From Escherichia coli (GTDB lineage Bacteria > Pseudomonadota > Gammaproteobacteria > Enterobacterales > Enterobacteriaceae): DNA of 551 nt. The notes beneath the pieces were generated by a model, which was not told where the DNA came from, made no database searches, and saw only the letters and a program-made list of their open reading frames with translations. Numbering within the stretch: position 1 is the stretch's first letter; each line of letters starts with the position of its first letter. The DNA is taken from the NCBI RefSeq assembly GCF_003334785.1, contig NZ_QOWV01000084.1. One strand, written 5' to 3'. Made by a program: the position numbers and the translations under genes. Positions 1-551 of the stretch are shown one piece after another.

Positions 1-4
1 AGTT

Positions 5-40
5 GTAGGCCTGATAAGACGCGACAGCGTCGCATCAGGC
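5..40 (-). repeat. REP/PU, Z-type-like, copy 1
   Basis: Minus-strand read is GCCTGATGCGACGCTGTCGCGTCTTATCAGGCCTAC: two 14-nt arms complementary at 12 of 14 positions (mismatches at arm positions 8-9), a 4-nt loop and a CTAC tail. It matches the recalled E. coli Z-type PU consensus apart from about one loop base. Confidence 0.85.
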
Positions 41-47
41 ATTGATT

Positions 48-81
48 GCCGGATGCGGCACAAGTGCCTTATCCGGCCTAC
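48..81 (+). repeat. REP/PU, Y-type-like, copy 1
   Basis: Plus-strand GCCGGATGCGGCACAAGTGCCTTATCCGGCCTAC: 14-nt arms GCCGGATGCGGCAC and GTGCCTTATCCGGC complementary at 12 of 14 positions, followed by a CTAC tail. The arms match the recalled E. coli Y-type PU consensus; the loop region differs from that recalled consensus. Confidence 0.85.
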
Positions 82-96
82 AGGTCGGCAATAGTT

Positions 97-132
97 GTAG
101 GCCTGATAAGACGCGACAGCGTCGCATCAGGC
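97..132 (-). repeat. REP/PU, Z-type-like, copy 2
   Basis: Identical in sequence to the PU at 5-40, offset by 92 bp. Confidence 0.85.
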
Positions 133-139
133 ATTGATT

Positions 140-173
140 GCCGGATGCGGCACAAGTGCCTTATCCGGCCTAC
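140..173 (+). repeat. REP/PU, Y-type-like, copy 2
   Basis: Identical in sequence to the PU at 48-81, offset by 92 bp. Confidence 0.85.
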
Positions 174-188
174 AGGTCGGCAACAGTT

Positions 189-224
189 GTAGGCCTGATA
201 AGACGCGACAGCGTCGCATCAGGC
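189..224 (-). repeat. REP/PU, Z-type-like, copy 3
   Basis: Identical in sequence to the PU at 5-40, offset by 184 bp. Confidence 0.85.
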
Positions 225-231
225 ATTGATT

Positions 232-265
232 GCCGGATGCGGCACAAGTGCCTTATCCGGCCTAC
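232..265 (+). repeat. REP/PU, Y-type-like, copy 3
   Basis: Identical in sequence to the PU at 48-81, offset by 184 bp. Confidence 0.85.
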
Positions 266-280
266 AGGTCGGCAATAGTT

Positions 281-316
281 GTAGGCCTGATAAGACGCGA
301 CAGCGTCGCATCAGGC
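281..316 (-). repeat. REP/PU, Z-type-like, copy 4
   Basis: Identical in sequence to the PU at 5-40, offset by 276 bp. Confidence 0.85.
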
Positions 317-323
317 ATTGATT

Positions 324-357
324 GCCGGATGCGGCACAAGTGCCTTATCCGGCCTAC
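324..357 (+). repeat. REP/PU, Y-type-like, copy 4
   Basis: Identical in sequence to the PU at 48-81, offset by 276 bp. Confidence 0.85.
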
Positions 358-372
358 AGGTCGGCAACAGTT

Positions 373-408
373 GTAGGCCTGATAAGACGCGACAGCGTCG
401 CATCAGGC
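373..408 (-). repeat. REP/PU, Z-type-like, copy 5
   Basis: Identical in sequence to the PU at 5-40, offset by 368 bp. Confidence 0.85.
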
Positions 409-415
409 ATTGATT

Positions 416-449
416 GCCGGATGCGGCACAAGTGCCTTATCCGGCCTAC
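416..449 (+). repeat. REP/PU, Y-type-like, copy 5
   Basis: Identical in sequence to the PU at 48-81, offset by 368 bp. Confidence 0.85.
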
Positions 450-464
450 AGGTCGGCAATAGTT

Positions 465-500
465 GTAGGCCTGATAAGACGCGACAGCGTCGCATCAGGC
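465..500 (-). repeat. REP/PU, Z-type-like, copy 6
   Basis: Identical in sequence to the PU at 5-40, offset by 460 bp. Confidence 0.85.
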
Positions 501-507
501 ATTGATT

Positions 508-541
508 GCCGGATGCGGCACAAGTGCCTTATCCGGCCTAC
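508..541 (+). repeat. REP/PU, Y-type-like, copy 6
   Basis: Identical in sequence to the PU at 48-81, offset by 460 bp; only the downstream linker is cut by the window end. Confidence 0.85.
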
Positions 542-551
542 AGGTCGGCAA

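Follow-up and report, generated by a model that had tools for sequence, protein, structure and literature searches.

A repeat-only stretch of Escherichia coli DNA that probably comes from the interior of the rhaA-rhaD BIME-2 array

In Escherichia coli K-12 MG1655, the spacer between rhaA and rhaD in the rhaBAD(M) operon contains a tandem array of repetitive extragenic palindromes (REPs) of the type called bacterial interspersed mosaic element 2 (BIME-2). The subject of this study is a stretch of 551 nucleotides of E. coli DNA (contig NZ_QOWV01000084.1 of assembly GCF_003334785.1), the whole of which is called the window below. It consists of such repeats from its first base to its last, and it is very probably an excerpt from the interior of a rhaA-rhaD array, without either of the natural ends of that array, which would continue past both edges. 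At homologous loci the neighbours of the array are rhaB, rhaA, rhaD and rhaM. A literature search for a description of REPs between rhaA and rhaD yielded nothing specific.

A single tandem array spans positions 1-551 (Tandem Repeats Finder: period 92, 6.0 copies, 99% matches, no indels, score 1088), and a repeat search of the window gave copies of 275 nt that are spaced by 92 nt and have an identity of 99-100%. The repetition is far above chance, since a 193-nt stretch of the unit is present twice as compared to none expected from 200 shuffles. Each 92-bp unit is composed, in this order, of a Y-type palindromic unit (PU) with GTAG, the inner linker ATTGATT of 7 nt, an inverted Z2-type PU ending in CTAC, and an outer linker of 15 nt which, when complete from CTAC to GTAG, reads AGGTCGGCAA[T/C]AGTT. 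The GTAG motifs (at 5, 97, 189, etc.) and the CTAC motifs (at 78, 170, etc.) alternate through the window.

The Y units have GTAG at their 5' side and lie on the + strand at 5-40 and 97-132, which have the same sequence, and further, by direct reading and the repeat search, at 189-224, 281-316, 373-408 and 465-500. The Z2 units are inverted, so that CTAC forms their 3' side on the + strand; they are found on the - strand at 48-81 and 140-173, again of the same sequence, and by the same two approaches at 232-265, 324-357, 416-449 and 508-541. The inner linker at 41-47 recurs at 133-139, 225-231, 317-323, 409-415 and 501-507. Complete outer linkers are present at 82-96 (AGGTCGGCAATAGTT), 174-188, 266-280, 358-372 and 450-464, and their 11th base is the sole variable column of the unit, being T in three of these linkers (92, 276 and 460) and C in the other two (184 and 368). 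Because this column alternates strictly as T, C, T, C, T, the real period of the array is 184 bp, and the double unit (U-T-U-C) at 1-184 on the + strand occurs about three times in the window.

The original prediction stated that one and the same linker is cut at both edges of the window, that there is no unique flanking sequence, that 12 PUs are present, and that the edges nearly coincide with unit boundaries. All of this is borne out by direct reading. The window starts with AGTT (1-4), a truncated 3' part of the outer linker that is found before every GTAG of the window (93-96, 185-188, etc.), here before GTAG at 5-8; it ends with CTAC (538-541) followed by AGGTCGGCAA (542-551), a truncated 5' part of the same linker that stops one base short of the variable column. 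Every base belongs to the repeat, in agreement with the tandem repeat span of 1-551, and the PUs are indeed twelve, six Y and six inverted Z2, at steps of 92 nt. The length equals 6 x 92 - 1, and the base that is absent on either side (positions 0 and 552) is the variable column.

As DNA, the Y unit folds as an imperfect hairpin of -12.8 kcal/mol (z -5.4) and the Z2 unit as one of -10.3 kcal/mol (z -4.1), the stems of both being interrupted by internal mismatches. When 276 nt of the + strand were folded as RNA, folding was much better than that of shuffled sequences (z -10.9). The longest open reading frame in the window encodes 48 amino acids, and its six distinct short open reading frames are absent from a collection of 15 billion proteins. 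No promoter-like or terminator-like sites were found in the window.

The genomic location was approached by a megablast search of the window against 5,426 complete E. coli genomes, 5,213 of which gave matches, with a median of 6 matching places per genome. The best-matching chromosomal records that were examined are those of strains 100181, L26, 219, D8, 23CRST025, ZJ3920, FG31-1, 23CRST011, Combat11I9, TO6 and K-12 MG1655, the last one by its coordinates, and in all eleven the match lies between rhaA and rhaD, the + strand of the window being oriented like the operon. By blastn, positions 1-184 of the window are identical at 184 of 184 bases to units 1-2 of the K-12 MG1655 rhaA-rhaD spacer. 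In contrast, the double unit has 79-82% identity to the K-12 arrays REP325 (yjdN-yjdM), tldD-yhdP and sucB-sucC, which have other linkers and periods of 91-100 bp. It has been described that within a locus the tandem copies of a BIME are well conserved, whereas linkers vary between loci (PMC3333891). Since identity is complete to the rha array and 79-82% at the three other K-12 BIME-2 loci, the 92-bp unit is locus-specific and the window is of the rha type. The rha-type linkers are ATTGATT and AGGTCGGCAAYAGTT, unlike those of the other K-12 BIME-2 loci tested.

What the natural ends look like can be learned from ten alleles that were decomposed by script and from that of strain D8, which was read by eye. 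In all alleles the left end consists of the rhaA stop codon TAA, followed by ACAC and a lone head Z2 with its linker, so that this Z2 is located 4 nt past the stop; n units of 92 bp come after it. The last unit ends in …CCTACGGGTCGTGCAT and not in …CCTACAGGTCGGCAA, with the B2-type allele of ZJ3920 (…GGGTCGTACAC) as an exception, and from the variant terminal unit (…GGGTCGTGCAT, the form in which natural arrays end) to the rhaD ATG there are 41 nt, including the ribosome-binding site. The length of the spacer equals 82 + 92n in most alleles, B2-type alleles having about 10 extra bases in the right tail; examples are 82 bp (n = 0), 450 bp (K-12), intermediates of 634, 818 and 910 bp, and 1002 bp (n = 10). 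The window, which starts with linker and Y and ends with Z2 and the internal form of the linker (…AGGTCGGCAA), contains neither natural end.

Because neither the head Z2 nor the variant terminal unit is present in the window, this comparison supports that both of its ends are interior junctions, as well as the earlier claim that the array is incomplete in the window. A natural array holding the window would need n to be at least 7, since a head unit, the six window units and a terminal unit are required; this corresponds to 15 or more palindromic units in a spacer of no less than 726 bp. If the window is a genuine excerpt, the left neighbour is expected to be rhaA…GGGTAAACAC followed by TGCCGGATGCGGC[A/G]C[A/G]AG[T/C]GCCTTATCCGGCCTAC[A/G]GGTCGGCAA[C/T], and the right neighbour to be [C/T] followed by at least one unit ending in CCTACGGGTCGTGCATC[T/C]GACAACACCGAATTTACAGGAACACAGAACATG, which leads to rhaD. 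The statement in the original prediction that 12 PUs is a minimum count assumes such a faithful excerpt; the copy number is unreliable if the window is a repeat-only contig from short reads, a matter discussed below.

Variation of the number of units between strains at a given BIME-2 locus is well documented (PMC3333891), and pronounced polymorphism in the length of BIME-2 was noted by Bachellier et al. 1997 (summary in PMC1187871). The rha locus is present in 5,403 genomes. To describe it, a spread sample of 56 genomes was searched with a query that combined 1 kb of the rhaA 3' end with the 1 kb that begins just upstream of rhaD. The number of units was n = 0 in 11 genomes, 1 in 10, 2 in 9, 3 in 3 and 4 in 15, the remaining 8 of the 56 having a 200-bp allele of another kind. 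Longer alleles occur among the best matches of the window, with n = 5 (TO6), 6 (23CRST025, FG31-1), 7 (23CRST011), 8 (219), 9 (D8) and 10 (100181, L26, Combat11I9), which brings the observed range at this locus to n = 0 to 10. Sixty genomes with 2-kb flanks that are 100% identical to those of K-12 have spans that correspond to n = 1, 2, 3, 4 and 5, and because these values are found among genomes with K-12-identical flanks, copy number changes more quickly than point substitutions build up.

Differences between alleles consist of whole units or of blocks of several units. In strain 219, with 8 units, the four-unit block of K-12, including its C74A unit and variant Z2, is duplicated exactly and in tandem (positions 1997-2814 of the fetched record); the TO6 array is that of K-12 with unit 1 duplicated, and the array of 23CRST011 resembles that of L26 or Combat11I9 minus three adjacent duplicate units. 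The order of the variable linker base is C-T-C-T in K-12 and C-T-C-T-C-T-C-T in 219. For K-12 the number of PUs has been quoted as 'two to twelve' (PMC1187871), a range that is exceeded by the rha alleles of up to 21 palindromic units. This is mildly new, as is the threefold (U-T-U-C) repeat as an unsampled allele.

The K-12 MG1655 array, the closest known relative of the window, shares with it the 92-bp unit, the types of PU, the linkers and the orientation with respect to the operon. It differs in having 4 units plus the head (9 PUs), of which two units only are perfect, whereas the window has six perfect units with strict T/C alternation. The long alleles of 100181, L26 and Combat11I9 (10 units), D8 (9) and 219 (8) share the locus and the unit of the window and are at least as long as the window needs; they differ by unit variants at positions 60, 62, 65 and 74 and by other orders of T and C, and the best identity of a single piece to the window is 99.3%.

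In the nomenclature of Gilson, Bachellier and Hofnung, the window is a BIME-2 (REP) array. BIME-2 is defined by Y and Z2 REPs in tandem, with alternating orientation and short linkers (PMC3333891; PMC1187871). Direct reading of the window gave PUs of alternating orientation with two alternating short linkers of 7 and 15 nt, and DNA folding gave imperfect palindromes of about 35 nt with a stem mismatch. The copies are in tandem (6.0 in the window) and their number varies between strains at one locus (n from 0 to 10 at rha), while the extragenic position in or at the end of an operon follows from the homologous loci, all of which are in the rhaA-rhaD spacer. The PUs are of the Y and Z2 types and not Z1, the unit being aligned end to end with the Rfam model RF02564 (naRNA4) at 76.6 bits; each Y unit falls within a match to this Y-linker-Z2 model, as does each Z2 unit. 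The typing as Y and Z2 would thus rest on comparison with this REP325-derived model and with the K-12 BIME-2 loci; identity to three accepted K-12 loci is 79-85% and is concentrated in the PUs. Judged from sequence, all defining features of BIME-2 are present.

Several observations weigh against the window being a faithful piece of a natural rha array. The exact 551 nt are missing from all 5,426 complete E. coli genomes (best single piece 99.3%), as are the central 377 nt, for which the best single piece has 99.2% identity. The 193-nt core (T-U-C-U-T) had no match among the GTDB species representatives or in the JGI metagenomes. The required n of at least 7 is a rare allele, n of 5 or more being absent from the spread sample of 56 genomes. 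A 78-base pattern of linker and Y also had no match in the GTDB representatives, a search that was probably too strict for the single E. coli genome there.

Part of these observations would be explained if the window is a repeat-only contig, or a path in an assembly graph, from the short-read assembly of a K-12-like strain. The assembler would have looped several times through the U-T-U-C cycle and have halted at the T/C branch, so that the copy number is unreliable and neither the six units nor their alternation is a measured allele; even so, the DNA would be of the rha BIME-2 type, and the ends of the real array would differ from those of the window. We regard this as a serious possibility, although on balance a doubtful one. 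Both edges adjoin the sole polymorphic column, for which the odds with arbitrary cuts are about 1 in 10^4, and this suggests that the edges were placed by an algorithm which halts at a mismatch or branch. Such an algorithm could be an assembly graph, or a tool that cuts windows at maximal repeats, and a genuine genome processed by the latter would yield identical edges. The double unit is 100% identical to K-12, yet the exact 377-nt core is found in 0 of 5,426 complete genomes. Against this, T/C alternation is natural in K-12-type alleles (K-12, 219), and block duplications and arrays of up to 10 units occur in nature.

The same possibility receives some support from the 'complete' record of laboratory strain TOP10 (NZ_CP080620.1), which has a 275-bp piece (3 x 92 - 1) with identical AGTT…GGCAA edges. 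This piece is wedged between tRNA fragments, amid concatenated fragments of tRNA, RHS and IS sequences at the chromosome end. Comparable collapsed pieces exist in the records of XL10-Gold and Stbl4, but the piece in XL10-Gold has other edges, so the edge rule is not general. We continue to prefer the view that the window is an interior excerpt of a rhaA-rhaD array, while the number of its units is read with the reservation given above.

The tails of these laboratory strain records deserve mention in their own right. The 'complete' sequences of TOP10 (NZ_CP080620.1, 2400-3600), XL10-Gold (NZ_CP081008.1, 1501-1604) and Stbl4 (NZ_CP081009.1, 151-265) end in repeat fragments that are strung together, including tRNA pieces, RtT, RHS and IS sequences and collapsed rha BIME units of 275, 104 and 115 bp, respectively. 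They look like short repeat contigs that were appended to the chromosome.

A different reading is that the array is a cluster of genes for naRNA4-like small RNAs, i.e. nucleoid-associated RNAs that work with HU, as described for REP325. The naRNA4 model of Rfam was derived from the Y-l-Z2 unit of the K-12 BIME-2 REP325, which consists of six Y-linker-Z2 repeats (PMC4550694). The window likewise has six repeats, and all six give end-to-end unit matches to RF02564 on the - strand, with scores of 76.6 bits as compared to a gathering score of 59.5. However, this model describes any Y-Z2 unit, and the strong matches are antisense to the rha operon, the sense strand scoring 53.2 bits, which is below the threshold. 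Identity is about 80% to REP325 but 100% to the rha array, which contradicts an origin from the REP325 locus (yjdM-yjdN), and in the Rfam alignment the inner linker of REP325 is longer by 6 nt. With no promoter-like site in the window either, we consider a small RNA cluster distinctly unlikely.

The known system REP325, with naRNA1-6 (yjdM-yjdN of K-12; RF02564), resembles the window in its six tandem Y-linker-Z2 units and in its hairpin architecture. It differs in locus, in its 100-bp period, its 13-nt inner linker and its outer linker, in sequence (about 80% identity), and in having the opposite orientation with respect to the transcribing operon. Since naRNA4 scores 76.6 bits on the - strand and 53.2 bits on the + strand, the rha array is inverted relative to its own operon as compared to REP325, where the high-scoring strand is the transcribed one.

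That the window stems from a similar array at another locus or in another species, and not from the rhaA-rhaD spacer of E. coli, we hold to be very improbable. BIME-2 arrays do occur at several loci, which agrees with the median of 6 matching places per genome, and the complete genomes searched were those of E. coli. However, the three K-12 BIME-2 loci that were tested differ from the window in identity, linkers and period as given above, and every best match examined is at rhaA-rhaD. A phage collection gave no match, and the matches in a plasmid collection were at most 92.5% identical and restricted to chromosome-like 'plasmid' records. A CRISPR-like or other spacer-bearing array, which the regular spacing of palindromic repeats might bring to mind, can practically be dismissed, since two linkers of constant sequence, 7 and 15 nt long, take the place of 'spacers' and two repeat types alternate in orientation.

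A number of other candidate classes were tried and rejected. A true CRISPR array was discarded because unique spacers are not present and the repeats are inverted pairs, a coding repeat because the largest open reading frame encodes 48 amino acids, and intrinsic terminators or promoters because there are none in the window. BIME-1 shares with the window the presence of REP hairpins in inverted pairs, but it is a single-copy element with Z1 and a long L linker with a site for integration host factor (IHF), whereas the window is a tandem array with Z2 and a 7-nt inner linker, and has 0 matches to the IHF consensus WATCAANNNNTTR. A REPtron was rejected since the neighbours at the homologous loci, rhaB, rhaA, rhaD and rhaM, do not include a tnpA-REP (Y1 transposase) gene; the array would be a substrate of the REP-associated transposase and not a REPtron.

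Regarding the way in which the rhaA-rhaD BIME-2 array may change and act, properties described for other BIMEs and REPs provide a possible scenario. The array could gain and lose units by slippage or by unequal recombination between the 92- or 184-bp repeats, possibly assisted by the REP-associated transposase RAYT (TnpA-REP). The REP-associated Y1 transposase binds single strands at GTAG and the mismatch in the stem, with cleavage and recombination taking place at CT dinucleotides (PMC3333891). On DNA, the Y units might be preferred sites of gyrase binding and cleavage. BIME-2 elements are enriched in sites of gyrase cleavage, which lie mainly in Y units (PMC6379681, whose main text does not name the rha array), and they are strong gyrase sites independent of transcription (PMC6379681; Espeli and Boccard 1997, as cited there).

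On the rhaBAD mRNA, stacked hairpins may shield the upstream rhaB-rhaA segment from 3' exonucleases and may also attenuate read-through into rhaD, the expected outcome being that the level of rhaBA would be above that of rhaD. Protection of upstream mRNA by REP hairpins and attenuation of transcription by BIMEs have both been described (Newbury 1987; Higgins 1988; Espeli, Moulin and Boccard 2001; as cited in PMC12306157). The stem of the head Z2 begins about 5 nt after the rhaA stop codon, which is inside the 15-nt range within which REPs stall ribosomes and lower translation (Liang, Rudd and Deutscher 2015, via PMC12306157); the head unit could in this way reduce translation of rhaA by stalling the terminating ribosome. 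A nucleoid role of the naRNA4/HU type is conceivable for any Y-Z2 RNA (PMC4550694), with the high-scoring strand in this case being antisense to the rha operon.

A more speculative idea is that the rhaA-rhaD BIME-2 is an unusually fast-changing copy-number locus, the length of which tunes the rhaBA:rhaD ratio as a 'rheostat', via mRNA protection and attenuation or via supercoiling. We consider this unlikely. If true, it would represent contingency-like control inside a sugar operon, and the window would be an unsampled allele that arose by threefold amplification of a 184-bp double unit.

The biological weight of the window is otherwise little, since it is an ordinary array. Descriptions of BIME-2 arrays, of the way they are built from Y and Z2 units and of the variation of their length between strains go back to the 1990s, and the array is present in K-12. 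Windows that contain repeats only should be recognised as REP or BIME sequences, not as novel arrays or clusters of small RNAs. The naRNA4 model matches every Y-Z2 unit of the window despite an identity of about 80% to REP325. The copy number in such windows may reflect the assembly or the cutting of the window and not the genome. The length of the rha spacer (82 + 92n bp in most alleles) can itself serve as a simple marker, one that is variable even among near-identical strains.

Some further features of the natural alleles were observed. A 3-bp deletion in the first Y hairpin (GACAGCGTCGC to GACATCGC), which gives an 89-bp unit, is common to three strains from different countries (about 2912-3000 in one record). 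Positions 60 and 65, which are paired in the apical stem of Z2, are A-T in the units of the window and G-C in the head and terminal units, a compensatory change, and an A·C intermediate is present in units 7-8 of strain 100181. In CFSAN027350, the rhaA-rhaD spacer of which has the minimal length of 82 bp (n = 0), a gene annotated as fucO (lactaldehyde reductase) is located between rhaD and rhaM (2175-3323 of the record), and the same gene is found in RM9975. The 200-bp allele that occurs in 8 of the 56 sampled genomes is represented by O104:H4 strain 2011C-3493 (1240-1400 of the record), in which the head Z2 is followed by a GC-rich palindromic element of about 159 bp (…CCCTCACCCCGGCCCTCTCCC…GGGGAGAGGGTTAGGGTGAGGGG…) without Y-Z2 units; this element presumably resembles boxC-type repeats.

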